DNA from: Patescibacteria group bacterium
GTDB lineage: Bacteria; Patescibacteriota; UBA1384; XYA2-FULL-43-10; 1-14-0-10-43-13
Assembly: GCA_038078835.1 (NCBI GenBank)
Contig: JBBTQI010000005.1
Location: 43,901 to 107,900, forward strand
Length of the DNA stretch: 64,000 bases
Direction of reading: 5' to 3'
Part shown: positions 2,434 through 61,746 of the stretch, one piece after another
Numbering within the stretch: position 1 is the stretch's first letter
Layout: each line of letters opens with the position of its first letter
The notes under the pieces: model-generated
Databases searched by the model: none
What the model saw: only the letters and a program-made list of their open reading frames with translations
What the model was told of the DNA's origin: nothing
Program-made: the position numbers and the translations under genes

Positions 2434-2596
2434 AGCGGTACTTGCCCCGCGGCGGCCTCATCCGCCCGGGAAGGTTGGTCCAGGGAAACTCCTTGTCGTT
2501 GTTCCCGAACTGCTCCTCCCCGAGCTTCTGCCGCCACGAGGCGATCTCGTCAGAGAGAAGGTGGAGATTGCGCTCCACCTCCTCGGGTTGGCCCAG

Positions 2597-3157
2597 TCAA
2601 CTGCCCTCTTTGCCGCGCTTCTCGCGCAGGGCGGCCAGACCGGTCTTGGGCTTGGAGGCCGGCGGTGCCGAGGTTGCCATCTCCGGCGATGCCGGCTCCT
2701 TGCTCTCCTTGAGCGGGGACTCCGGCTCCGAAGACTTCTTCTCCTCCTTCTCCGCGGCCGGTTTGGGCGCAACGATCGGCTTGGGAAGCTCCGAGTTGTG
2801 ACCTTCCCGGGGACCAATCGCCAACGCTTCCCGGCCGGCCTTGACGGCCAGCCAGAGATCGAGGATGTATCCGCCCGCCAGGGTGTAGTTGAACCCCTGG
2901 GGACTCACCTCGACCGAGCCGGCCGGCTCGTCCAGCCGAACCTGCTTCTCCTCGCCGGCCTTCTGAAGGAAGACGCCCTTTGCCTTGGTCGCCACCGTGT
3001 TAGTGGGACCCTGGAAAAGGACATGGCCTTCGGCCGGGTCGGCGCCCTCGTTCTCAACGCGGATGCAAAGGAGATAGATATTCCCTTCTGGCACCCCGGC
3101 CTGGTTGATCGGCTGCTTTATCTCCGCGTCCCACGCGAAAGCAGTCACCTCTGTCAT
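2597..3157 (-). CDS. Hypothetical protein (GC-rich island 1), Lys/Pro/Glu-rich C-terminus
   Basis: 186-aa ORF, about 65% GC; start ATG 1 nt after upstream stop with GGAGGAGG inside the upstream gene end. Confidence 0.5.
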   Translation of the reverse strand: MTEVTAFAWDAEIKQPINQAGVPEGNIYLLCIRVENEGADPAEGHVLFQGPTNTVATKAKGVFLQKAGEEKQVRLDEPAGSVEVSPQGFNYTLAGGYILDLWLAVKAGREALAIGPREGHNSELPKPIVAPKPAAEKEEKKSSEPESPLKESKEPASPEMATSAPPASKPKTGLAALREKRGKEGS

Positions 3158-3158
3158 A

Positions 3159-3683
3159 TCACTCCTCCTCCTTCTCCGCCTCGGCCTCGGCGACCTTGCG
3201 GACCGCTCGTGCCAACGGATCCGGCAAAACCTTCTCCCCTCGCAGGATCGAGAGCATAGCGGGCATTGTCACGTAGGCCTCGCCGCTCATGATGTACGGG
3301 GAGTAGTCCTGCCCAGCGTCGCCGACAACCTCGTAGGTCCAGCGGCCGCTCTGGCGGGAGCGCTTGATGACGACCTCGGCGCCGTCACCATCAACCCAGG
3401 CCGGCTTACTGCCGCGCTCGACACCGTGAGGGTAATCGGCCTCCACAGCGATCGGAGCGATCAGCGCTTCCTCGCCACTTGACCGCTTCGCCTTAACAGC
3501 GAAATCAGGAAAGTAGTTGAGGAAGAGATCGGCCGCGATGTCGCCGAGATTCTTGCCCCCATACCGTCGCTGGTTGTTGGGCTGAGCAATCTCGGCGATC
3601 TCCGAGAGCCTGAAGTAGAGCCAACCAAGCGGGCCGCGAACAGCCGGCGGCTGAACTCTTGGGAAAACCGTACTCTTGGCCAT
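3159..3683 (-). CDS. Hypothetical protein (GC-rich island 1)
   Basis: Track ORF 3159..3728 trimmed to ATG (MAKSTVF...) preceded by GGAGGAGGG. Confidence 0.5.
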   Translation of the reverse strand: MAKSTVFPRVQPPAVRGPLGWLYFRLSEIAEIAQPNNQRRYGGKNLGDIAADLFLNYFPDFAVKAKRSSGEEALIAPIAVEADYPHGVERGSKPAWVDGDGAEVVIKRSRQSGRWTYEVVGDAGQDYSPYIMSGEAYVTMPAMLSILRGEKVLPDPLARAVRKVAEAEAEKEEE

Positions 3684-3899
3684 TTCTGTAAACCCTCCTC
3701 CGGTTTTAGAGGACCGGAAACCTGTCACGCGTTTCAGATTTGACAGCGTAATGGAAAGAAGCTACTCACATTCTATGAGTAATTTTTTTTCATTAATAGG
3801 TCGGATGAGACCGAGCCGCTTGGCGGCTCGGTCTCCAAATCCCCTGATTAGAAGTACGAGTTGCTTGGACAGGGATAAGTCCCCAAGCAACTCTTGGCG

Positions 3900-4448
3900 C
3901 TAAAAAGCCGGTCCGCCGGCCGGCGGTCCGGCCGGACCGCCCAGGGGTGCGGCGGAAACGGCCACGGTGCCGGCCAGCAACGGACCTGGATTCATCTGCT
4001 GCTGCCAGTCGTTGCCCTGAAGGGGCAACAAAGCCGGTGCTGCCGGATTGTGGCCGACGCTCCAGCCAATACTGATCGGCTGGCCGTTGGCGTCCGCCCG
4101 AATCGAGACGGTCACCTCGATCAGTGTCCGGGGCGGCAAGGTGAAGTTGAAGCCCCACCCCGCTGGATCGATCATCCCGGTCTTGTTCTGTGGCACCTGG
4201 CCACGGGGCTCACCGCTCGGCCCACACTCACAGGAGACATACGTTGCCGTCGCATTGGCAACATTGCTGACTCCCGCTGGGTGGATGAAGGCGATGTTAC
4301 CCTTGCCCCTGCCAGTAGAGACAGGATTGGCAATCCGGATCACGACCTTGTAGTCGCAATCCGGAGGTACTACCGCGCCGATCAGGCTGTACAGCGCGGG
4401 CTGGTTAGCGTCGTTCAGCCCGAGCAGACTGGCTTGAACGTGAAACAT
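3900..4448 (-). CDS. Hypothetical protein (GC-rich island 1), Gly/Pro-rich C-terminus
   Basis: 182-aa ORF with AAGGAGGGG RBS; stop region carries a GC palindrome. Confidence 0.5.
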   Translation of the reverse strand: MFHVQASLLGLNDANQPALYSLIGAVVPPDCDYKVVIRIANPVSTGRGKGNIAFIHPAGVSNVANATATYVSCECGPSGEPRGQVPQNKTGMIDPAGWGFNFTLPPRTLIEVTVSIRADANGQPISIGWSVGHNPAAPALLPLQGNDWQQQMNPGPLLAGTVAVSAAPLGGPAGPPAGGPAF

Positions 4449-4461
4449 TTACCCCTCCTTC

Positions 4462-4995
4462 TCATGGGTGGTGGCCAATGAAGTGTCCCGTGTTTGGCGA
4501 TGGAACCCGGTGAGTGTTGGCCACCGTGGTTGTTACCTGGGCACCCGCGACGGTCGTGCCGGGAGCCAGCGGCTGGGTAGTCGCTGGAGCGCCCGGCTGG
4601 TTGACGGTTGGTGCCATCGGTTGAACGACGACCCCCTGCGTCACCAACTGATGACGGTTCCTGATCGCCCAAGCTACTGCGAGAGCGATGGCGGCAAGCA
4701 CCACGATACCAGCGATGATCCACATATCCGTGTGGGAGGGACCATCATCCGGCATGGCGATGTAAGTCGGAGCCGGAACCGCTACGGTTGGAGCAGGTGC
4801 CGAACTGGGGGGTGCAAGTGCAACCCTAGCCGGCGACAGTGCCTTACTGGGCTCTGCCGAGTGTGCGACCGCAGCCGGCGTTGTCTGCTGGCGACGCGCC
4901 GCCATCTCCCTCAAACTCCACCAGGAGACGAGGAGGACGGTGAGCGCCATGGAAGCCAGCAAAGCCGTCCTTCTTGATATCCTTGGTATCCTCAT
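4462..4995 (-). CDS. Hypothetical membrane protein (GC-rich island 1), two predicted TM segments
   Basis: Track ORF 4462..5070 trimmed to ATG (MRIPRISRRTALLASMALTVLLV...) preceded by GAGGGG. Confidence 0.5.
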   Translation of the reverse strand: MRIPRISRRTALLASMALTVLLVSWWSLREMAARRQQTTPAAVAHSAEPSKALSPARVALAPPSSAPAPTVAVPAPTYIAMPDDGPSHTDMWIIAGIVVLAAIALAVAWAIRNRHQLVTQGVVVQPMAPTVNQPGAPATTQPLAPGTTVAGAQVTTTVANTHRVPSPNTGHFIGHHP

Positions 4996-5011
4996 CTTAC
5001 CCCTCGTTTCC

Positions 5012-5716
5012 CTAGCGTGAGACCAGCAAGAGGGTGAGAAAGACCAGAATGGCCATAATGCCCGCGGCAATGAACGCCTTGGGCCATGTCATTCCGAGTT
5101 CTCGCCAAATCTGCTGATGCTCGACGCTGTTTTGGAGCTCGCGGCGATCCTCCCGTCGATCCTGGGCCTCGTCCCGCACATCGCTGTGCAGGTTGGCCCG
5201 CTCAATCGAGCGGTTAACGGCAGTCGCCAGCTCCTCGCGAGTTGTAAACGACTGCCATTCCCGGCTTCGCCAAGTGGTGTAGGGGCGGCGGCCCACCAGG
5301 CGGTTGTTGGCAAGCGCCCGCTGAACCTCACCCATCGCCCACTCGCTCGCCGCACCGGATGGCAGTTTGGCCGGGACAATTCTGATGAATGTCCGGCCTT
5401 GTACTATCCGCCGCTCCACGACCTTCATGTGGCGACCATGTCCGACCACTGTCGTGGTAACACGGCCGCCGTGGTTGGCGGTGCCGGCTTGGCCGGCGGT
5501 CGGCACAGTGGGCTGGTCGGCGGACGAACCAACGGGCGGGTTTTGATGCCCCTCGCTGTCCTCCAGCCGCACTCTCGGCTCGCCCTTCTCTTCGGGCGAA
5601 CCGAGTGACGACGGGCCACCACGATGGGTCGTCATCACCTCTGCTCGCGCCCAGACGGGCGCGGCGTTGCTGGCAAACAGGGCTGCCAGCAGGCCCGCGA
5701 TGAGAACTCCTCTCAT
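5012..5716 (-). CDS. Hypothetical secreted protein with N-terminal signal peptide and C-terminal TM anchor (GC-rich island 1, first gene)
   Basis: 234-aa ORF; GGAGGAAGGAG RBS; signal peptide MRGVLIAGLLAALFASNAAPVWA; C-terminal hydrophobic segment. Confidence 0.55.
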   Translation of the reverse strand: MRGVLIAGLLAALFASNAAPVWARAEVMTTHRGGPSSLGSPEEKGEPRVRLEDSEGHQNPPVGSSADQPTVPTAGQAGTANHGGRVTTTVVGHGRHMKVVERRIVQGRTFIRIVPAKLPSGAASEWAMGEVQRALANNRLVGRRPYTTWRSREWQSFTTREELATAVNRSIERANLHSDVRDEAQDRREDRRELQNSVEHQQIWRELGMTWPKAFIAAGIMAILVFLTLLLVSR

Positions 5717-5937
5717 AGAGTTCTCCTTCCTCCGCTTAAGAATTATCCCCGCCTTTCGTTGTGGGATCCTTGGAGCGGATGGAGGGAGCCGATGCTGGCG
5801 TGCCCTCCCGTCAAATAGATACTAAGGCCAAAGGCATTAAGCCTCCATTTGATGAAAGGGCACTATTTTCTTGTCAAGGTGCTAATTCGCGCCAGAACGA
5901 ACCCAGTTTTTGATGGCGTGAATTCGGTGTCTGACGC

Positions 5938-6025
5938 AAAAGTGTGCTGCACGGTATAAATACGGGCGGAGGGGGAACCCGTATTCCTTCGGCTTGCGCC
6001 AAAGGAGTACCGCACAGCACACTTT
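5938..6025. repeat. Structured palindromic element A (about 88 nt): 18-bp outer stem, inner hairpin with loop CGGAGGGGGAA, second hairpin; core GGCGGAGGGGGAACC at 5965..5979
   Basis: aaagtgtgctgcacggta...taccgcacagcacacttt outer stem; atacggg/cccgtat inner stem; homologous to element B at 6628..6722. Confidence 0.55.
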
Positions 6026-6083
6026 CGCCTCCAGACAATTCGTCATCTGCTAGCTCTATATTTAGAGCCCAAAGTCATACTAC

Positions 6084-6113
6084 TGGATCCCCGATCGAGT
6101 CGGGGATGACAAC
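6084..6113. repeat. Hairpin repeat family H1, copy 1 (tggATCCCCGAtcgagTCGGGGATgacaac)
   Basis: 8-bp perfect stem; related copies at 15837, 19746-19855 and 42552. Confidence 0.5.
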
Positions 6114-6204
6114 ATTTCATTGTTCATTCCCGGTTGGTCAGTGTAACAGCGCATTATAGCATAGCAAGTGGTCGCTGTCAAGGTTTTATCCACAGAAAAC
6201 TTTG

Positions 6205-6233
6205 TTGACAGTAACATCCTGAAGGCTTAATAT
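6205..6233 (+). promoter_or_regulatory. Near-consensus sigma70 promoter (TTGACA, 17 nt, TAATAT) for the coiled-coil gene; perfect DnaA-box 9-mer TTATCCACA lies at 6186..6194 just upstream
   Basis: TTGACAgtaacatcctgaaggctTAATAT followed by AAGGAG and ATG at 6252. Confidence 0.6.
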
Positions 6234-6251
6234 CTTATCATAAGGAGAAAA

Positions 6252-6527
6252 ATGGCACTCGACAAAAACGACATTAAAATTATCAACGATCTCTTAATGA
6301 AGTCGGAAGATCGAATAATCTCCAAGGTTGATTCGAAGATTGATTTTGCTGTTGAAAAACTTGAACTTCGACTCGAGAATGTCGAACATCGATTGGAGAA
6401 TGTTGAGCTTCGACTCAAGAACGTCGAAAGAAGCATCGACGATCTAATTGAAACAAATCAAGCCTTTCTTGAGCTCTTCAATGACCACGAAAAAAGAATT
6501 ACCCGCCTTGAAACAAAAGTACTCTAG
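6252..6527 (+). CDS. Small coiled-coil protein (91 aa) with imperfect ENVE.RL heptad-like repeats
   Basis: ORF with strong promoter and AAGGAG RBS; sequence ...LELRLENVEHRLENVELRLKNVERSIDDL... Confidence 0.6.
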   Translation: MALDKNDIKIINDLLMKSEDRIISKVDSKIDFAVEKLELRLENVEHRLENVELRLKNVERSIDDLIETNQAFLELFNDHEKRITRLETKVL

Positions 6528-6627
6528 TTGACAATCCTCCTTCTCTTGGGTTCGTCTCAAAACCTGCGGGGTTGCCGGCGAATCTGCGCTATGGAGGGTT
6601 GTTTTATCTCTCTGACGGGAGAAAACA

Positions 6628-6722
6628 AAAAGTGCGGCAAGGCGCTGTATAGTCAAACGCAGGCGGAGGGGGAACCTACGACTCGCCGAAGCGAGTAAGA
6701 CTACACAGCGCGCTACCGCACT
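6628..6722. repeat. Structured palindromic element B (about 95 nt), homolog of element A; identical core GGCGGAGGGGGAACC at 6662..6676 in the same orientation
   Basis: agtgcgg..gcgctgtatagtc / gactacacagcgc..ccgcact outer stems; inner hairpin loop CGGAGGGGGAA; hairpin actcgc-cgaa-gcgagt. Confidence 0.55.
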
Positions 6723-6784
6723 GATTTGCTCTAATTGCTCAGAACATCTGATGTTATCATACCTAAATTTTTTTGTCAAGAGGA

Positions 6785-7993
6785 TTATTCTTGGCGCAAC
6801 TCCCGCATCAGGTTTAGATATTGCCAGAGGTTGTGGAGCGTGGCCAGACGCAAACCCAAAATCTCATTGGATCGCAGAAGATGGGAGATGTAAGCACGAG
6901 AGAAACCGGCGGTGCAAGCGGGACAGGCGCAATTTTCATCAATCACTTTTGGATCCTCGCGATATCGGGAGTTTAGGAGATTAATTAACTCGTAGCCCTC
7001 ACCCCCACCCTCTCCCCGGAGGGGCGAGGGGATTTGTTGTTGGTCGTTGGAACGTTCGTCGTCCATTTCTGATTTGCAAACATAGACAGAACCGTGCCTC
7101 GCTAAACGTGTCGGCAGGACGCAGTCAAACATATCCATACCCAAACGGGTTGCCTGAATAATATCATCGGGGGTTCCCACACCCATAAGATAGCGCGGTT
7201 TGTCTTGGGGTAGAATCTCCCCCATTAATTTAACTATGTCCCACATATCGCGCGTCTCCAGATCAACCGCCAAACCGCCCACGGCATAACCGTCAAAGCC
7301 GATCTCCGCCAGTGCTGCGGCGCACTCTTGCCGCAAAGTAAGATCCAACCCACCCTGGACAATAGCAAACAGCAGCGGCCGGAGGCTGGAGGCCTGTCCG
7401 TTGAGCCTTGGGCCTTGGGCGCGGGCAAGAAAATGTTTTTTTGCCCGCTTCGCCCATTCGATCGTTAGTTGTGTCGCGCGCTTGATCTCCTCCGGCGTCG
7501 CCTTGCCGCTCGGGCACACGTCAAGCGGCATTAAGATGTCCACGCCCAGATCGAGCTGAATATCGATAACCCTTTCCGGTGTGAAAAAATGCTTCGAGCC
7601 GTCAAGGTGAGAAGTGAACTCGACGCCATCATCACAAATTTGCACCAACCCATCCGCCTGAGGCCTGAGGCCTGAGGCCTGAGACGAGTTTTTAGCCAGG
7701 CTAAAAACCTGGTAGCCGCCGGAGTCCGTAAGAATCGGTTTATCCCAGCGCATAAAGGAGTGCAGACCACCCAATTTTTTAATAAGCCTCTCGCCCGGCC
7801 GGAGATAGAGATGATAAGTGTTGGCCAAAATAATTTCGGCCCCAAGTTCTTTGAGCTCCCGCGGCGCCACCCCCTTGACACTGCCCGCTGTCCCCACCGG
7901 CATAAAAAAGGGAGTGCGAATAAGACCGTGGGGAATAGTCAACTCGCCAACGCGAACAGCGCTTTCTAGTTTTTTAATCAGTGAAAATGGCAT
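6785..7993 (-). CDS. tgt: Queuine tRNA-ribosyltransferase (tRNA-guanine transglycosylase)
   Basis: Tgt-like N-terminus (...FFMPVGT...), Zn motif CACPACTAG...H, catalytic region LTDSGGYQVFSL. Confidence 0.9.
   Translation of the reverse strand: MPFSLIKKLESAVRVGELTIPHGLIRTPFFMPVGTAGSVKGVAPRELKELGAEIILANTYHLYLRPGERLIKKLGGLHSFMRWDKPILTDSGGYQVFSLAKNSSQASGLRPQADGLVQICDDGVEFTSHLDGSKHFFTPERVIDIQLDLGVDILMPLDVCPSGKATPEEIKRATQLTIEWAKRAKKHFLARAQGPRLNGQASSLRPLLFAIVQGGLDLTLRQECAAALAEIGFDGYAVGGLAVDLETRDMWDIVKLMGEILPQDKPRYLMGVGTPDDIIQATRLGMDMFDCVLPTRLARHGSVYVCKSEMDDERSNDQQQIPSPLRGEGGGEGYELINLLNSRYREDPKVIDENCACPACTAGFSRAYISHLLRSNEILGLRLATLHNLWQYLNLMRELRQE
7656..7683. repeat. Tandem heptanucleotide repeat (gcctgag x4, 28 nt) inside tgt coding sequence
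   Basis: Four perfect 7-nt units; encodes SQASGLRPQA in the Tgt frame. Confidence 0.8.
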
Positions 7994-12117: not shown

Positions 12118-12853
12118 AGGGGACGGTTCTCTTTTAGATACAGTTTTACACTTTTTAAGTCTTTATCTTCCGATCTATCTTGTCTTGTTCTCTATAACGT
12201 TGAATGTCGCTACCCCAGATGGGTTTCCGATATGATTCCTCGATTATTTGAGCAACGAGCAATCCTTGGTAGTTGGTTTGTCGCTCCGCTTCGTTCTTTC
12301 CCATTGCCTCGTACATGAAATCAGGTGTGATAAGAGGATTTTTCTCACCCATAGAATAAAATCGATAACTGGAGTAAAGATACTCCTCTGGACTTTTTGC
12401 CAGATCGGCTCTGATTGGATTGAGTTCAATATATTTTCCGCACTGGATAAAGTAAGCATCTTTGCCAATAGTTTGGCTTTTAAAACGATCCTGCCAAAAG
12501 TGGCCCACCCAATTATATTTTTGTTGGTAATGGTGAAAATATGCCAAGTTTATTTTTTTCATAAAGACAGAGAACTCGCTGGCATGCTTTGTCTGAATCT
12601 GAAAATGGGTATGCGTTGGCATAAGACAATAATGATAGAGGTCAAAAGGGTGTTCTATCTTGTATTTCGCAAGTAATTCCAAATAGTACAAGTAGTCATC
12701 GGGCGACCTAAAGACAACACTGCGGTTATTGCCTCGCGTCATAATATGATAGTAACTTTGTGACAAGAGAAGCCTTTTTGCCCTGGGCATATAGCAATAA
12801 TACCAAGATTGACAAAAAAGTGTAATTTTGTAATCAAAAGAGAACCGTCCCCT
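12118..12853 (-). mobile_element. REP-associated (RAYT-like) / IS200-like Y1 transposase unit bounded by perfect 18-bp inverted repeats (aggggacggttctctttt / aaaagagaaccgtcccct)
   Basis: 18-bp perfect inverted repeat at 12118..12135 and 12836..12853 flanking the Y1 transposase gene; short repeat clusters outside each inverted repeat. Confidence 0.55.
12155..12790 (-). CDS. IS200/IS605-family Y1 (HuH) tyrosine transposase, RAYT-like
   Basis: Track ORF trimmed to MPRAKRLL; HuH motif LYHYCLMPTHTHF and ...WQDRFKS... catalytic Tyr region. Confidence 0.75.
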   Translation of the reverse strand: MPRAKRLLLSQSYYHIMTRGNNRSVVFRSPDDYLYYLELLAKYKIEHPFDLYHYCLMPTHTHFQIQTKHASEFSVFMKKINLAYFHHYQQKYNWVGHFWQDRFKSQTIGKDAYFIQCGKYIELNPIRADLAKSPEEYLYSSYRFYSMGEKNPLITPDFMYEAMGKNEAERQTNYQGLLVAQIIEESYRKPIWGSDIQRYREQDKIDRKIKT

Positions 12854-12892
12854 TTCCGCAGTCCCCTTTCCGCAAGCGTCCCCTTTCCGCAA
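12847..12892. repeat. Three tandem copies of gtcccctttccgca(a) just outside the right inverted repeat
   Basis: cgtcccctttccgca gtcccctttccgcaa gcgtcccctttccgcaa; gagtgagg-type repeats at the left end (12070-12120). Confidence 0.7.
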
Positions 12893-12951
12893 GCTTCCTG
12901 AGGCAGAATCAGTGATTGCTTTGTAGTTTAAAATTCTAAATTTGTTGAGCT

Positions 12952-13752
12952 TCATAGAATTATAGTTTGCTTTTCATATAATATTGGCAAAGCGTCCTGC
13001 CTCATACGAAATTTTGTGCCGTGGTTATGGCCGGTGCGGGCGTCGAAATCCACAAGAATTTTTCCTTCTTCCAGCGCTTTCAAAAATCCTTCAAAACTGA
13101 ATTTCTGCAACATCATCACTTTTGTGTAATGATAAAATTCTTTTTTCCGAACGATTTTGACTTCGGCTTGAACATAAAAACAGTTCAGCAATTTTGTTCC
13201 CGCTTTGTGTTTCAAGTCATCAAAACCCCAATACGGTTGTGGATTTAATTCACTTAGACCGACCCTCTTTTTGACTAATTTTTTCCAACCGGAATGTTTT
13301 TCAGCTATTTTTTTGCTGTTGAAAGAAATTAAAACCTTCTGCTCCTTTTTGTCTATCTTCACAAAAAACCCTCGGTCGGAAACCGATGAACCACAGATTG
13401 TTTGCCTAAAACTCATTTCTTCAGATTTATATTTTGTCCCGGCTTCTTGGTGCCCCCAGCCATAAAGGGGTAAAAGAATTTTTGGGACAAATCCTACTGC
13501 TCGAGGTGATGGCTCCATATGAAAAAGTGTTGTGAGAGAACAGGTATTTATCCTCTGGGTCTTGAGTTCCCACTCTGCTGCGTTTGGAATTGGTAAATTA
13601 TTTTCCTGTATCCCGAGTAAATCCTCAAGCGTATTACCAATTCCACCGCTATTACCATGTCTCGCATTTGGAATCCAACCCTTTTTAACAATTTCCTTGA
13701 ACTTTTCAATGAGTGATTCTTTGGAAAATAGTACCGGTTTCTTTATCATCAC
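12952..13752 (-). CDS. Type II restriction endonuclease, MvaI/BcnI-like
   Basis: Pattern matches recalled BcnI/MvaI blocks (GNTLEDLLGIQENN...EWELK..., LTTLFHMEP); about 40% GC versus about 50% genome; adjacent MTase. Confidence 0.65.
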   Translation of the reverse strand: MMIKKPVLFSKESLIEKFKEIVKKGWIPNARHGNSGGIGNTLEDLLGIQENNLPIPNAAEWELKTQRINTCSLTTLFHMEPSPRAVGFVPKILLPLYGWGHQEAGTKYKSEEMSFRQTICGSSVSDRGFFVKIDKKEQKVLISFNSKKIAEKHSGWKKLVKKRVGLSELNPQPYWGFDDLKHKAGTKLLNCFYVQAEVKIVRKKEFYHYTKVMMLQKFSFEGFLKALEEGKILVDFDARTGHNHGTKFRMRQDALPILYEKQTIIL

Positions 13753-13757
13753 GCTCC

Positions 13758-14510
13758 TTATATTAGCTTACCCTGAGCAGTATGTTTTTTTATTCTCTCT
13801 TCTGCCATTTTGCAGTACTCTGGCGATACATCTATTCCGATATAGTTCCGATTAAAATTAATCGCAGACAGAGCAGTCGTACCTGAACCCATAAATGGAT
13901 CGAGGACTACATTTGCATTTGTTGAGGAAATTATGCGGTTGATTAGCTTTACAGGAAAAGGTGCGGGGTGGCCATTTTTCATTTCTTGGGTAAATTCCCA
14001 AATATCACCATAAGCATTAGCCTTAGGAGACAGTTTAAATTTGGGCTTAGCAATCAAATAGATAACTTCGTAAGTCGGTAAAAAATATCCGGCGTTGAAG
14101 TTGAGCCCGCCTTTTCTTTTCCAAATGATAATTTGCCTTACAGGAAAGCCGCTAACTATATCTTGACGATCTTGCAAAAGTCCTGCTTGCACCCTCCATT
14201 TATGGTTATAAAAAATGGCTCCATTCTCGGGAATAATACGCATTGCCTCATTCAGAAATTCTCTTTGCCATTGAGCGTATAACTCGTGGGGCATATTGTC
14301 ATCATAATTTGCGTATCCTTTTTGCAAAGCAGCATTTGCCCATTTGCCGCCACGCCCATCTTTCATACCATTACCGGTTGAATTCTTTAAATTATATGGC
14401 GGTGAAGTGATTACCAAGTCAACTACTCCATTAGGAATCTGCTTCATCACTTCAACGACATCACCACAGATTATTTTGTTGATAAAATCATCCGGATATT
14501 TCATTTTCAC
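13758..14510 (-). CDS. Beta-class DNA N4-cytosine/N6-adenine methyltransferase (motif IV DLVITSPPY before motif I DPFMGSGTT)
   Basis: SPPY and FxGxG motifs in beta-class order; cognate MTase of the adjacent REase. Confidence 0.8.
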   Translation of the reverse strand: MKMKYPDDFINKIICGDVVEVMKQIPNGVVDLVITSPPYNLKNSTGNGMKDGRGGKWANAALQKGYANYDDNMPHELYAQWQREFLNEAMRIIPENGAIFYNHKWRVQAGLLQDRQDIVSGFPVRQIIIWKRKGGLNFNAGYFLPTYEVIYLIAKPKFKLSPKANAYGDIWEFTQEMKNGHPAPFPVKLINRIISSTNANVVLDPFMGSGTTALSAINFNRNYIGIDVSPEYCKMAEERIKKHTAQGKLI

Positions 14511-45091: not shown

Positions 45092-47533
45092 TTATGTATT
45101 ATTCAATGTTGCCTGCAAAACCTCATCGATCGTGGTTAATCCCTGCAGGGCCTTTAATATTCCATCCTGGCGCATAGTAATCATCCCCGACCTGATTGCC
45201 GCCTCCTTTATTTCGTTGGCCGATCGCCGGGAAATGGCCAGCTCCTCAATCTCGGGGGTTATTCCCATAACTTCAAAAACCCCAACCCTCCCCCGAAAAC
45301 CCTGCGAACAATTCTCGCAACCCCGACCGTAGTAAAAGTGAATATCGCCGCTAAAGCGACTCCGGTCAGCATAATTCCGGGGCGGTATCTTTTGCAATTC
45401 GGCCGCAACCTCTTCCTTTAGCTTCTCCGGCACCTTCATCTCCTCTTTGCATTTAACGCAGATGCGCCGGACCAGACGCTGGGCAACAACAACATTAATC
45501 GATGAGGTAATCAGAAACGGCTCAACACCCATATTAATCAAACGCGGCAGGGTTCCGGCCGTGTCGTTGGTGTGCAAGGTTGTCAGTACCAGGTGGCCGG
45601 TTAGGGCGGCGTGCGTGGCCATTCCCGCCGTCTCGACATCTCTCACCTCTCCCACCATAATAACGTTTGGATCCTGGCGCAAAACGCTTCTTAAGCCCGT
45701 CGCAAAATTAAATCCGATCTCCGGCTTAACCTGACACTGGCTTACACCCGGCACTTCATATTCGACAGGATCCTCAAGCGTCACAATATTGATTCCGGGA
45801 ATGCTTAAGCGGCTAAGCAGAGCATAGAGAGTCGTCGACTTGCCGGAGCCGGTCGGGCCGGTGGCTAGAATAATCCCATAAGGCTGACCGATTGCCTGAA
45901 TGGTCAAATTAAAGGCGCTACCCTGCATACCCAAGTCTTCGAGCGAGAGAATAGTCTGGTCTTTGTCCAGTATCCTCAGCACAACCTTCTCGCCGTGAAT
46001 GGTCGGCAAGGTCGAAACCCGAACATCAACGTTTCTGCTCTTAAAGATCAGACCGAATCGTCCGTCTTGGGGGATTCGGGTTTCATCAATTTTGAGGCGC
46101 GACATAATTTTTATCCGGCTGATAATTGGAGGATGGAGCTTGAGTGGAACCTTAACGATGTCGCGCAAGATCCCGTCTACCCGGCAGCGTACGCGCAAGT
46201 GCTTGCTCCCCGGCTCAAGGTGAACATCGGATGCTTTATTAACGAGAGCATAATCAATCACCCCGGCCACAATCTTGGGTACATATGCCTCGCTTACGAT
46301 CTCTCCCAGGTCTTTATCGGTGGAGATCTCGCGGCCGTCCAGTAAAACATCCAGTTTGTTCTCCTCGAGTGCCTGCTGGTCGCGCTTTTCCTTAACAGAA
46401 ACCTCCTCTGCCGCCGCCGGAACCTTTAGTCGGTCCCCCTCCGCACCTGCCGGCAACTCTGCCGCTTGAATCGGCTCATTCTCAATCTTCACCTCTTTTT
46501 CTGTCTCCCCTCCGGGTGATTTGGCTGATTCTTCGGCCTTCGGCCTTTGGCCTTCGGCTATTTGCCTTTCCCCCTCCTTGGGTTCGCCCTCCTCAAAAGC
46601 ACGGAGTTGGGGCACCTCGTCAATGGTAATGGCGGGATCGTCTTTGGGCACAAAAAGAGACTCAAGAAAAGATGCGGACCATGCCTTATTTCCCCCCTCC
46701 CGGACCGGCTCCTCTTCAACCTGAGATTCCGTCTCCTCTTGGCTGCCCTGATCGTATTTTTTTAAGACGTAGTCAATATCCTCACGGGAAGTTGCAAAGA
46801 GTTCAATCGCAACCCCGTTTTCCTTAACAATATAATCAATAATCTTTTTGGTCAAAACAGAATCAGGCTCCTCGCAGGCAATCATTAAGCCGCCCGTCTG
46901 TTTTTCAGCAAAGACCACCAGACGATATTTGGCAATAAAATCCTTGGGCATCTTGTGCAAAAGATGAACGGAAATATTTTGGTTGCGCAAATAAACAACC
47001 GGCAGACTTCCCCTCTTCATCAGCAAAGCGCTTTTGTTTTGGCTGCCGTATTGTTTTAGGGCGCTGATAAAATCATTTTCGCCGGTAATATACAATTCAA
47101 CCGTCAATTCCCTTTTTTCCAACAAATTAGCCAAGCCCACGGCATATTGAGCCAAAAGATCCGCCGGACGAGCAACGGCAAGCCTTAAAATGTTGTCATT
47201 TAGACCAAAGGGCACAACACCGTATTTTCGGGCAAATTTTTCCGGTACTGCCGCCAAAGCCTCCTTGGAGATCTCAAAATTTTGCAGGGAGACAAAGGGG
47301 AGTTTTAAGAGAATGCCGTAAGCTTTATTTATGGTGTCGCGAGTAACCAGGCGGTTTTTGGTTAAAAAGTTTTCAATCTCGCGATTAGTCCGAAAGTGTT
47401 TTTTAAGTTTGTCGGCATCGCTTAGATCCAAGGTATTCTGCACGACAAAAACATCCAGGATCGATTGACCGGAGGCATTGTAACCGTTAAGCAACCGAAG
47501 GGCGTTTTGCGGCTTTTGGGTAATTTGAGACAT
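45092..47533 (-). CDS. pilB: Type IV pilus assembly ATPase PilB/GspE with long acidic N-terminal region
   Basis: GPTGSGKST Walker A, C4 zinc motif, GspE core. Confidence 0.85.
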   Translation of the reverse strand: MSQITQKPQNALRLLNGYNASGQSILDVFVVQNTLDLSDADKLKKHFRTNREIENFLTKNRLVTRDTINKAYGILLKLPFVSLQNFEISKEALAAVPEKFARKYGVVPFGLNDNILRLAVARPADLLAQYAVGLANLLEKRELTVELYITGENDFISALKQYGSQNKSALLMKRGSLPVVYLRNQNISVHLLHKMPKDFIAKYRLVVFAEKQTGGLMIACEEPDSVLTKKIIDYIVKENGVAIELFATSREDIDYVLKKYDQGSQEETESQVEEEPVREGGNKAWSASFLESLFVPKDDPAITIDEVPQLRAFEEGEPKEGERQIAEGQRPKAEESAKSPGGETEKEVKIENEPIQAAELPAGAEGDRLKVPAAAEEVSVKEKRDQQALEENKLDVLLDGREISTDKDLGEIVSEAYVPKIVAGVIDYALVNKASDVHLEPGSKHLRVRCRVDGILRDIVKVPLKLHPPIISRIKIMSRLKIDETRIPQDGRFGLIFKSRNVDVRVSTLPTIHGEKVVLRILDKDQTILSLEDLGMQGSAFNLTIQAIGQPYGIILATGPTGSGKSTTLYALLSRLSIPGINIVTLEDPVEYEVPGVSQCQVKPEIGFNFATGLRSVLRQDPNVIMVGEVRDVETAGMATHAALTGHLVLTTLHTNDTAGTLPRLINMGVEPFLITSSINVVVAQRLVRRICVKCKEEMKVPEKLKEEVAAELQKIPPRNYADRSRFSGDIHFYYGRGCENCSQGFRGRVGVFEVMGITPEIEELAISRRSANEIKEAAIRSGMITMRQDGILKALQGLTTIDEVLQATLNNT

Positions 47534-61037: not shown

Positions 61038-61320
61038 CTTGCTCAAAAATTAATTTTTCCCTTCGCTTATCACATCCTGCCAAAAATAACTCAGCAATTG
61101 CCGGGTTATTTTTGTGGTACTCAAATTTTAAACTCTTATCGTAAAATTGGCAGCTAATTGAGGAGTGTTCCCGGTTCCCCCGGTTCCGCAACTCTCGCAA
61201 CCCCCTGTTATAACCGAGGGGATCGCGATGTATGGCCGCGCTGATAACAACTCGCACTCTGGCAATATTTAGTGTTTTCTGCTAAATTAGCCTTGCCACT
61301 ACGGCGGAGGGAGAGAACCG

Positions 61321-61746
61321 ATGCTGATAATGCCGACGGGCGCAATGCACGCCCATATCACGTTAGGTCAGGATGAGACTGTGCGGATCAAGTTCACGGA
61401 CGACAACCGACCCAGTCTCTCGATTGCGGTCGGAAGGGATGGTAAGATCTCGCTCAATGGCGAGGGACTCACGCCTGACAACTTCTCGCTCACCGAAAGA
61501 ACTCCGCTCGACTGGAAGGAGACGAGAGATCCGGTCAGGGAGATAGCAGGACATAGTCTTGTCCTTTTGCTCGAGGGCAAGGATGAACAGGTCTCGGCCC
61601 GCGATCTGCAAACCGACCTCAGATACTTCGCCACCCGGGTGAGGCAGATCTGCACTGATGTGCCCAGTCGGATCCTGGACCACCAGCGCCGCCGGAAGAT
61701 TATCGAGATCCTCTGTCAGCTTGATAAAGCATTCCAGCAGTTCTGA
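61321..61746 (+). CDS. Hypothetical protein (141 aa)
   Basis: GGAGGG RBS; terminator follows. Confidence 0.5.
   Translation: MLIMPTGAMHAHITLGQDETVRIKFTDDNRPSLSIAVGRDGKISLNGEGLTPDNFSLTERTPLDWKETRDPVREIAGHSLVLLLEGKDEQVSARDLQTDLRYFATRVRQICTDVPSRILDHQRRRKIIEILCQLDKAFQQF

Follow-up and report, generated by a model that had tools for sequence, protein, structure and literature searches.

RsaE/RoxS and LhrC of Bacillota carry C-rich UCCC or CCCC loop motifs that pair with G-rich Shine-Dalgarno (SD) regions, and several such motifs are found in simple hairpins and single-stranded linkers with no long basal helix. The genes of LhrC are moreover tandem and multicopy, and its targets are the mRNAs of surface proteins. 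The 6C RNA of Actinobacteria is described as a small, strongly transcribed and phylum-wide RNA in which, as the conserved feature, a hairpin loop exposes consecutive cytosines (PMC6486639, PMC5014011), and the M. tuberculosis representative is reported to bind several mRNAs via its C-rich loops with no chaperone (PMC6486639). In the 64,000-nucleotide stretch analysed here (hereafter the window), we detected two copies, A and B, of an element that has a conserved cytosine-rich hairpin loop in common with 6C, likewise in a probable small RNA with consensus-like promoters. However, the C-rich loops of 6C number two and sit on separate simple hairpins, each with at least 6 C-rich loop positions, whereas the element is predicted to have one C-rich loop, on hairpin 2, in a three-way junction with a 20-bp basal stem. 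When set against the 6C loops, the loop of the element, CCCCCUCC, stands out by including the anti-SD core CCUCC, which is complementary to SD-type sequences. The Rfam model of 6C gave no match to the element (E ≤ 10 in the region and E ≤ 1 in five related loci), and the phylum differs. With RsaE/RoxS and LhrC the element has a C-rich loop in common, and with LhrC also the tandem gene copies, but no similarity in sequence or model.

The two copies are very probably paralogues, each the gene of a small, structured and conserved RNA that measures about 95 nt without its leader and is encoded on the minus strand, which is also the strand of tgt. This family had been uncatalogued until now and is without a matching Rfam family. 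At the gathering threshold only tRNAs passed in a search of the window with Rfam 15, while a permissive cmscan of the region (E ≤ 10) drew in only spurious miRNA-precursor models, which match any long hairpin, and five related loci yielded nothing relevant (E ≤ 1). In the preliminary description of the locus, none of the families considered had appeared to match. Among the candidates tried, SRP RNA, 6S, Y RNA, hammerhead-type ribozymes, retron msr, TIGR arrays and phi29-type pRNA were rejected: Rfam gave no match where models exist, the alignment shows no conserved junction nucleotides, and the genes annotated with Pfam in the fetched loci include no RT, Ro or Tas domain. The genomes of Patescibacteria (CPR) are tiny, with few recognisable regulators, and no conserved small RNA was found for them in Rfam 15 or in the literature searched.

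Copy B, which is proximal to tgt (6631..6722, minus strand), and the distal copy A (5933..6031, minus strand) were delineated with a covariance model (CM R1), which scored them at 80.3 and 73.7 bits, respectively, on the minus strand versus 31.2 and 23.7 bits on the plus strand; over all copies the forward scores span 69–90 bits and those of the reverse strand 23–37 bits. Both copies fold far below shuffled energy (-59.6 kcal/mol for B and -65.0 kcal/mol for A), with z-scores against dinucleotide shuffles of -9.5 (A) and -10.4 (B) on the minus strand and -4.8 and -5.7 on the plus strand. The presence of two highly structured elements with identical cores in direct orientation, 697 bp apart, had already been noticed in the preliminary description, and the cores correspond to an exact 15-mer, GGCGGAGGGGGAACC, at 5965-5979 and 6662-6676, with no further exact copy in the 64-kb window. 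The hairpins had then been described on the plus strand, whereas the strand that folds is the minus one; on it the loop reads UCCCCCUCC and the small hairpin precedes the hairpin with the conserved loop. Mismatches in the stems comprise 50 G·U/U·G cells versus 3 A·C/C·A cells on the minus strand (15 aligned copies), and these G-U mismatches, the stronger fold z-scores and the copies' own promoters together identify the minus strand as the informative one.

The predicted fold is a three-way junction. Its basal stem of ~20 bp is interrupted by a small internal loop and includes a GUNCUG/CAGNAC box that is conserved in sequence. Hairpin 1 varies, with loops such as UUCG, GCAA, UUUA and similar sequences, and is capped by a UUCG or GNRA tetraloop in 7 of 13 copies, while hairpin 2 has a stem of 7–8 bp and bears the invariant CCCCCUCC within a 9-nt loop. 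Within the window, hairpin 1 has a UUCG loop in copy B and a GCAA loop in copy A, and hairpin 2 has the loop UCCCCCUCC in both; the helix of copy B can be extended to 6622-6732. The invariant segment lies at 6665..6672 in copy B, where the plus strand reads GGAGGGGG, and at 5968..5975 in copy A (both on the minus strand). It is unchanged in 17/17 aligned copies while the pair closing the loop covaries (U-G, C-G, U-A), and the mutant form of it that we propose is GGGGGAGG. Across the alignment 97.3% of the cells are paired and double changes are seen at 20 of the 28 pairs, a level that none of 500 shuffles reached and for which slid controls gave a maximum of 7. Building a covariance model and looking for compensatory changes and further copies had been suggested at the outset, and such changes, as well as copies in related loci, were indeed found.

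Each copy in the window has a consensus-like promoter of its own. P1 of copy B (6751..6779, minus strand), recovered in a promoter scan with 10/12 matches, has the form TTGACA-17-TAACAT with a TG before the -10 box and begins 6 nt past the tgt stop. P2 of copy A (6153..6181, minus strand) is a perfect 12/12 match, TTGACA-17-TATAAT with an extended -10 TG, and stands back to back with the promoter of a 91-aa ORF on the plus strand (TTGACA-17-TAATAT, 6205..6233). The latter is the sigma70 promoter reported earlier, which the scan recovered as well; the two minus-strand promoters had been overlooked. A DnaA box, TTATCCACA (6186-6194), had also been reported between the copies, but it is a single occurrence at chance level, at least one such box being present in 30 of 100 shuffles. 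Between P2 and the CM match lies a putative leader of copy A of ~115 nt (6032..6146, minus strand, with the start site inferred), which holds a hairpin previously labelled H1 (6088-6113). Counting consensus matches only, a TTGACA-17-TAnnnT promoter with at least 10/12 matches precedes the first copy in 11/11 loci, and among 9 two-copy loci, 5 have a 12/12 promoter separating the copies; like the window, L232, L235, L237 and L239 show this arrangement.

Directly 3' of the basal stem of copy B there is a terminator-like U-run, UUUUUGUUUUCU (6620..6630, minus strand), where 8 of the 10 nt past the match are U, and in 8 of 11 loci the distal or sole copy is followed by 5 or more consecutive U. U-runs were counted by script. 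The terminator scan covers loops of up to 8 nt, and the larger loop of the element escapes it. Given that a U-run ends the distal or sole copy in most genomes, the basal stem could double as an intrinsic terminator in most of them. Copy B lies 60 nt past the stop codon of tgt with convergent genes on its two sides, and probably serves as a terminator for transcription arriving from either direction as well. The U-run is weak or absent after copy A, where only UUUUG is seen inside the stem end, and after the distal copy of L240 and the copy of L426. Large intrinsic terminators and small RNAs derived from 3' ends resemble the element in having a GC-containing stem followed by a U-run. However, ordinary terminators are not known to have an invariant 8-nt loop, a three-way junction or a dedicated consensus promoter, or to be conserved, as the element is, over distances of 53–69% protein identity.

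The conserved upstream neighbour, tgt (tRNA-guanine transglycosylase; 6785..7993, minus strand; Pfam PF01702, E 3.9e-132), served as the synteny anchor. Through tgt homologues we fetched 12 related loci from Patescibacteria/Berkelbacteria with tgt proteins 53–69% identical, and 11 of these contain a single copy or a pair in the equivalent syntenic position, on the tgt strand. The twelfth is without a copy, and its contig stops ~700 nt past tgt; empty versions of the site, which the preliminary description had proposed to look for, were not seen among these relatives. The copies of L426 and L427, which are outside the seed alignment, score 75–78 bits with the CM. With filters off, the CM recovers exactly two copies in the 64 kb of the window, and the relatives have one or two copies per 13–21 kb, each at a single locus. 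The family was mostly recovered through tgt synteny, as exact-pattern scans gave mainly chance matches: only one of 65 matches in the genome scan was true (L130), and the 92 matches in the metagenome scan included a sole true full copy (L150) and two matches to the phage hairpin described below. The related copies always precede a fast-evolving gene for a secreted (signal-peptide) protein, and the upstream neighbours differ between loci (none, PaaX_M-like, DUF5663 or small acidic proteins). In these comparisons the single gene or pair is a fixed feature of Berkelbacteria-like Patescibacteria, situated between tgt and a fast-evolving cluster that encodes secreted or surface proteins. The RNA family is well supported by its strong covariation, its consensus promoters and its unchanging synteny, and it supplies metatranscriptomics with a defined target and annotation pipelines with a covariance model. 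It directly precedes the fastest-evolving secreted and surface-protein genes, which are plausible players in host attachment. We also noted that the strict linkage to the downstream gene cluster might mean a role in cis.

This fixed position bears on the possibility that the structures act as single-stranded DNA, either as an oriT or ssi for a nearby T4SS-like cluster or as IS200/IS605-type or att cassette termini that carry the 91-aa ORF, two mobile-element readings of which had been offered in the preliminary description. Strand-biased hairpins that tolerate G·T pairs are found in ssDNA elements too; moreover, a Y1_Tnp gene is situated 6 kb away in the window, a faint VirD4-like gene (PF02534) lies ~8 kb downstream in L234, and the two window copies flank an ORF. 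However, the syntenic position is fixed across genera with no empty sites seen, no additional copies occur in the 64 kb or adjoin the Y1_Tnp gene, and the structures, which are flanked by conserved -35/-10 promoters and U-runs, contain tetraloops of the RNA type (UUCG and GNRA) and no RYYYAAC/GTTRRRY boxes. Together with the RNA-type covariation, these features contradict both the miniature IS200/IS605-like termini and the att-like repeats of an excisable cassette, and we regard an ssDNA function as exceedingly unlikely. The 91-aa coiled-coil ORF itself (6252..6527, plus strand) is present as originally noted and belongs to an uncharacterised family of ~85–105-aa proteins. The elements do not bracket it in a functional sense, as had been supposed: in the nine two-copy relatives the copies are 12–180 nt apart with no ORF between them, and the ORF is a lineage-specific insert and not cargo.

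REPIN/REP and MITE-like repeats typically occur in tens to hundreds of dispersed copies, with locations that vary between strains. The element resembles these repeats and the ends of IS200/IS605 elements as an imperfect intergenic palindrome of ~90–110 nt with strand-biased G·T pairs and a Y1 transposase gene in the window, but differs from them in its one or two copies at a single conserved locus, own promoters, invariant loop and covarying stems. Several mobile candidates were rejected individually. For an IS200/IS605 element or a miniature derivative, a variable location would be expected, whereas the same slot and strand were found in 11/12 loci, and copies are neither placed around the Y1_Tnp gene (12952-13752) nor dispersed. 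REP/REPIN sequences with a RAYT would likewise be expected in many dispersed copies. For an integron attC, the stem starts AAAGTGTGC.../...GCACACTTT and AGTGCGG.../...CCGCACT carry no AAC/GTT boxes, and for a gene cassette, in addition to the ORF-less relatives, no integrase was found among the Pfam-annotated neighbours.

The gene downstream in the window encodes a 234-aa orphan protein with a signal peptide and a C-terminal membrane anchor (5012..5716, minus strand), which is the first of a GC-rich island and recovered only itself in a homologue search. The loop can pair with the SD region of this gene, GCGGAGGAAGGAG, the SD GCGGAGG being a perfect 7-mer complement of CCUCCGC. This complementarity would be in keeping with a cis-acting leader or attenuator of the downstream surface-protein operon, in which the stem and U-run would constitute a regulated terminator and the loop would sequester the SD of the operon or bind an antiterminator. 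Such a role would also fit the invariant site just 5' of a signal-peptide gene while the upstream neighbour changes, the lack, in the 9 loci scanned, of a promoter with at least 10/12 matches on the way from the last copy to the gene that follows, and the missing strong U-run at copy A and the distal copy of L240, which would allow read-through. However, across loci 92–440 nt separate the element from the downstream start codon, and this stretch is without conserved sequence; no conserved 9-mers occur in the interval from the last copy to the downstream gene, and upstream only the -35 box is common. The downstream proteins of nine loci are neither alignable nor homologous, which leaves no obvious ligand or regulatory logic that they would share. 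Nor is the complementarity to the downstream SD kept, as the immediately downstream gene ranks only weakly for loop pairing in L232 (7/19), L235 (10/16) and L239 (6/12). Furthermore, two separately promoted tandem copies and a strong U-run in 8/11 loci fit free-standing RNAs better, and we consider a cis-acting leader improbable.

As the best explanation of the whole, to which we give somewhat better than an even chance, the locus would consist of tandem small-RNA genes with a C-rich, anti-SD-like loop that regulates mRNAs. The evidence supports a third reading offered in the preliminary description, namely paired structured noncoding RNAs with a loop that is anti-SD-like on the other strand. 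The exposed loop would be the active part, pairing with G-rich GGAGG(G) ribosome-binding regions and thereby altering translation or stability of the target mRNAs, in a manner that may be likened to the action of the C-rich-loop RNAs 6C, RsaE/RoxS and LhrC of Gram-positive bacteria. That the loop acts by base-pairing with mRNAs is itself a tentative proposal, for which we would put the chance somewhat below even. In the window, genes of the downstream island rank 1, 2, 3, 5 and 6 of 23 by predicted duplex energy, a ranking that is confounded by the G-rich SDs of this GC-rich island and is weaker in other loci; the SD at 61305 is also predicted to form a good duplex. Being complementary to GGAGG is a generic property, as every SD pairs with CCUCC, and no conserved target site emerged downstream of the copies. 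A preference of the SDs in these genomes for GGAGGG would hint at an extended anti-SD; a G follows GGAGG in 13 of 31 cases, a proportion that points neither way. Translation control via the loop offers a concrete hypothesis for organisms that are not yet genetically tractable.

An alternative, which we view as rather unlikely, is that the RNA binds a protein as a scaffold, decoy or RNP component, and titrates or guides it instead of pairing with mRNAs. The recognition sites would be the invariant loop and the GUNCUG/CAGNAC box, and the candidate partners KH or poly(C)-binding proteins, dsRNA-binding proteins, or a factor whose usual ligand is the 3' end of 16S rRNA. Such binding would account for the conservation of the basal stem in sequence too (G12-C92, U13-A91 and C15-G89 are each identical in 16/17 copies and A9-U95 in 17/17) and for a loop that is invariant over deep divergence. 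The near-consensus promoters hint at high abundance, as in housekeeping or decoy RNAs, and tandem copies are typical of titrating RNAs such as CsrB and RsmY/Z. However, no candidate RNA-binding protein is consistently encoded next to the element, the loop is kept in three proximal copies whose stems diverge and in which hairpin 1 is missing, and a phage version retains the loop hairpin only.

This phage unit, which stood out among the 70, 116, 27 and 40 matches of four viral pattern scans, is a compact promoter-hairpin-terminator arrangement with an identical 15-nt loop region; copy A itself, compared by blastn with 50,697 phage records, matched none of them. Given that it keeps the loop region without the long basal stem, the phage unit suggests that the loop might be the functional module of the small RNA. 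We also entertained the quite unlikely alternative that the RNA, rather than pairing through a seed like an ordinary small RNA, is an abundant lineage-specific mimic of the anti-SD tail of 16S rRNA or the scaffold of a novel ribonucleoprotein. If true, translation initiation in these episymbionts with reduced genomes would be tuned globally by the RNA, or the RNA would sequester a factor directed to the ribosome, and the phage would carry a stripped-down loop hairpin to hijack that function. As a separate observation, the near-perfect 20-bp basal stem with its conserved sequence is odd for a small RNA that pairs through a seed, and would better fit recognition by a protein or RNase III.

The region 5400-7300 contains both of the ~90-nt structured palindromic elements with an identical core that the preliminary description had reported, and this part of it was borne out: in a search of the window, exact copies of the 15-mer GGCGGAGGGGGAACC occur only at 5965-5979 and 6662-6676, within elements A (5933-6031) and B (6631-6722), and both elements fold strongly. 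The folds on the minus strand (-65.0 and -59.6 kcal/mol for A and B; z -9.5 and -10.4) are better than those on the plus strand (-48.1 and -46.4 kcal/mol; z -4.8 and -5.7), because all imperfections of the long stem are G-U pairs on the former and A·C mismatches on the latter. On the minus strand each element forms a three-way junction, with a basal stem of ~20 bp and two hairpins, namely a small one (hairpin 1; loop GCAA for A, UUCG for B) and a loop hairpin with a stem of 7-8 bp and the 9-nt loop UCCCCCUCC. Among related tgt loci, chosen at 53-69% tgt identity, one or two copies were found in every locus with sequence past tgt (L232, L234, L235/236, L237/238, L239, L240, L241, L426, L427 and L150), on the tgt strand and in the intergenic gap ahead of a gene for a signal-peptide protein; L425, the sole locus without a copy, lies on a contig that stops ~700 nt past tgt. 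A covariance model (R1) built from 13 copies gave 75-78 bits to the copies of L426 and L427, which had been left out of its building, and with filters off it detected no copies in the whole 64-kb window besides A and B.

An alignment of 17 model-aligned copies (A7) has standard pairs in 97.3% of cells and changes on both sides in 20 of the 28 pairs. None of 500 column shuffles reached any observed measure, and when partners were slid by 1-3 columns pairing fell to 21-46% and no more than 7 double changes were counted. In 15 copies G·U/U·G cells number 50 and A·C/C·A cells 3, and model scores are 69-90 bits forward versus 23-37 bits on the reverse strand; it is therefore the tgt-sense strand that folds. 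The earlier suggestion of structured ncRNAs, whose loop on the other strand is anti-SD-like, stands, with the folding strand corrected to minus. Rfam 15 recovered only tRNAs from the window; at E <= 10 the elements drew only spurious miRNA-precursor matches, which any long hairpin attracts, and five related loci gave no match at E <= 1. GTDB genomes and JGI metagenomes scanned for the pattern returned matches in numbers at chance level, among them two real homologues, a contig of Candidatus Berkelbacteria (L130 and L232 being one contig) and the metagenome contig L150, where tgt is also present, each with two tandem copies. Matches to the Tgt protein came from an ENA Hainich groundwater contig and from NCBI MAGs labelled Patescibacteria. 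We consider that the RNA represents a small-RNA family of Berkelbacteria-like Patescibacteria which is new and well supported. Tgt itself (6785-7993) has, near its C-terminal third, an insertion that varies between lineages (DDERSNDQQQIPSPLRGEGGGEGYE), and its homologues span 353-527 aa.

A promoter scan placed the predicted promoters P1 (TTGACA-17-TAACAT, 6779..6751, minus) 6 nt past the tgt stop and 28 nt ahead of B, and P2, a perfect TTGACA-17-TATAAT that also has the extended -10 TG (6181..6153, minus), 121 nt ahead of A. B is directly followed by UUUUUGUUUU; for A there is only UUUUG, located within the stem end. A scripted scan of the window and its relatives found the first copy to be preceded by a TTGACA-17-TAnnnT promoter (at least 10/12) in all 11 loci, and a 12/12 consensus promoter between the copies in five of nine two-copy loci (the window, L232, L235, L237 and L239); the remaining ones have spacings of 12-72 nt between copies, which are probably co-transcribed. 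In 8 of 11 loci a U-run of at least 5 comes after the only copy or, where there are two, the distal one; proximal copies are usually without it. The leader GUUCUGAGGG... after P1 is common to several loci and forms a G-rich/C-rich hairpin, the C-rich arm of which is similar to the invariant loop of the RNA; sites of the form GUUCUGAGGG(U/A)G are seen at L150:1180-1225(-), L239:7262-7300, L240:7690-7745, L235:7790-7825 and L234:10360-10410, and the window retains only GUUCUGAGC (6733-6741, minus strand). A motif GGCGYGAAT / ATTCRCGCC, which may be an operator, also recurs near the RNA genes (window 5888-5930, L239:7150-7235, L235:8400-8460, L241:9040-9090), and its window form, gaattcacgcc ... 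ggcgcgaatt, lies just ahead of a TTGACA. The palindrome ATGAACGATCGTTCAT occurs twice in L235, adjoining a PaaX_M-like gene.

The two copies are 600 nt apart in the window versus 12-180 nt in relatives, and the gap holds the 91-aa ORF (6252-6527) on the strand opposite to the RNA genes; its plus-strand promoter (6205-6233) and P2 stand back to back. Between these promoters, the noted 'DnaA box' amounts to one 9-mer, no more than expected by chance. The ORF does belong to a conserved family of ~85-105-aa coiled-coil proteins (consensus MxLDKNDLKxIK...DFAIEKSE...DLIETNQxFL...HEKRITxLE) and is 40-51% identical to its nearest representatives. It was not found between the copies in any relative, and is therefore a lineage-specific insertion rather than cargo of a bracketed element. 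DNA-level readings (IS ends, att sites, oriT), including the IS200/IS605-like element and att-cassette proposed earlier, are contradicted by the fixed synteny, the copy number (two in 64 kb), the promoters and the RNA-type tetraloops. Between prfA and the M50B peptidase gene lies an inserted low-GC block (12155-14510; 0.39-0.40), which encodes an N6/N4 methyltransferase, an MvaI/BcnI-type restriction enzyme and a 266-aa Y1_Tnp protein; it is missing there in L234, L239, L241 and L426.

Conservation is uneven across the RNA. Hairpin 1 is free to vary in sequence and length, has a UUCG or GNRA cap in 7 of 13 copies, and is absent in three proximal copies (L150-1, L235-1, L239-1), which retain the long stem and loop. 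Within the basal stem, the GUNCUG/CAGNAC segment and an A-U pair are kept in sequence as well as in pairing; this conserved box would suit a protein-binding or decoy RNA, an alternative we regard as rather unlikely. CCCCCUCC is invariant among the aligned copies and is the only invariant single-stranded feature, while variation and covariation are seen at the position preceding it and at the loop-closing pair (UU, CU, AC, UA, CC; U-G, C-G, U-A). It contains the anti-SD core CCUCC, and we rank first, as the likeliest of the readings although at less than even odds for the pairing itself, that the RNA is a C-rich-loop, SD-pairing regulatory RNA, the mechanism being proposed by analogy: the loop CCCCCUCC would pair with the SD regions of mRNAs. 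RsaE/RoxS and LhrC are analogues of this kind. A further analogue is 6C (PMC6486639).

The upstream side of the RNA genes is variable: tgt may adjoin them, or a PaaX_M-like, DUF5663 or ABC-F gene or small acidic coiled-coil ORFs may come after tgt. On the downstream side there is in every case a signal-peptide protein, low-complexity or collagen-like and often membrane-anchored, which cannot be aligned between genomes, and next come a DUF5663 gene and one for a ~1000-1900-aa protein; in the window these genes are the GC-rich 'island'. This fixed linkage, and the lack of a strong promoter (at least 10/12) between RNA genes and operon in the nine loci scanned for one, would fit a cis-attenuator of the downstream operon, which we hold to be improbable. 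The immediately downstream gene is only weakly complementary to the loop in L232, L235 and L239, and no conserved site was found downstream of the RNA genes. With respect to SD pairing, island genes rank 1, 2, 3, 5 and 6 of 23 neighbouring genes of the window in predicted loop duplexes, and among starts of ORFs of at least 120 aa in the whole window the best predicted complement (-22.7 kcal/mol) is GGCGGAGGGAGAGAACC (61303-61323), which serves a 141-aa ORF (61321-61746, plus) as SD and ribosome-binding region. However, the loop would pair with any GGAGG. The island (2500-5750; GC 0.60-0.62) is made up of orphan genes whose products are Pro/Ala-rich and carry signal peptides; the first product had no homologue beyond this MAG in our search. 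The same slot in relatives holds non-homologous low-complexity or collagen-like secreted proteins.

The IMG/VR phage contig IMGVR_UViG_3300025087_000622 (L043) carries, adjoining a major head protein gene, a unit made up of TTGACA-17-TATAAT, a small hairpin, the hairpin AGCACAGG-UUCCCCCUCCG-CCUGUGCU and U7, and identical sequence is present in metagenome loci L211 (9985-10085) and L223. The loop region of this hairpin is identical to GGUUCCCCCUCCGCC and its stem runs 7 Watson-Crick pairs past the 15-mer; the longest such extension was 6 in a first set of chance matches (one ordinary terminator, L090) and 5 among 183 matches to other loop variants. This single phage case suggests that the loop hairpin is a functional module by itself, and the unit may be a phage-encoded mimic of the loop module of the host RNA. 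In the window, four GGAGGGGG octamers lie in coding sequence, at 46442-46700 and 43501 (minus strand); three of them are ~125-135 nt apart in an 813-aa ORF (45092-47533), a spacing that probably reflects a repeated protein motif.
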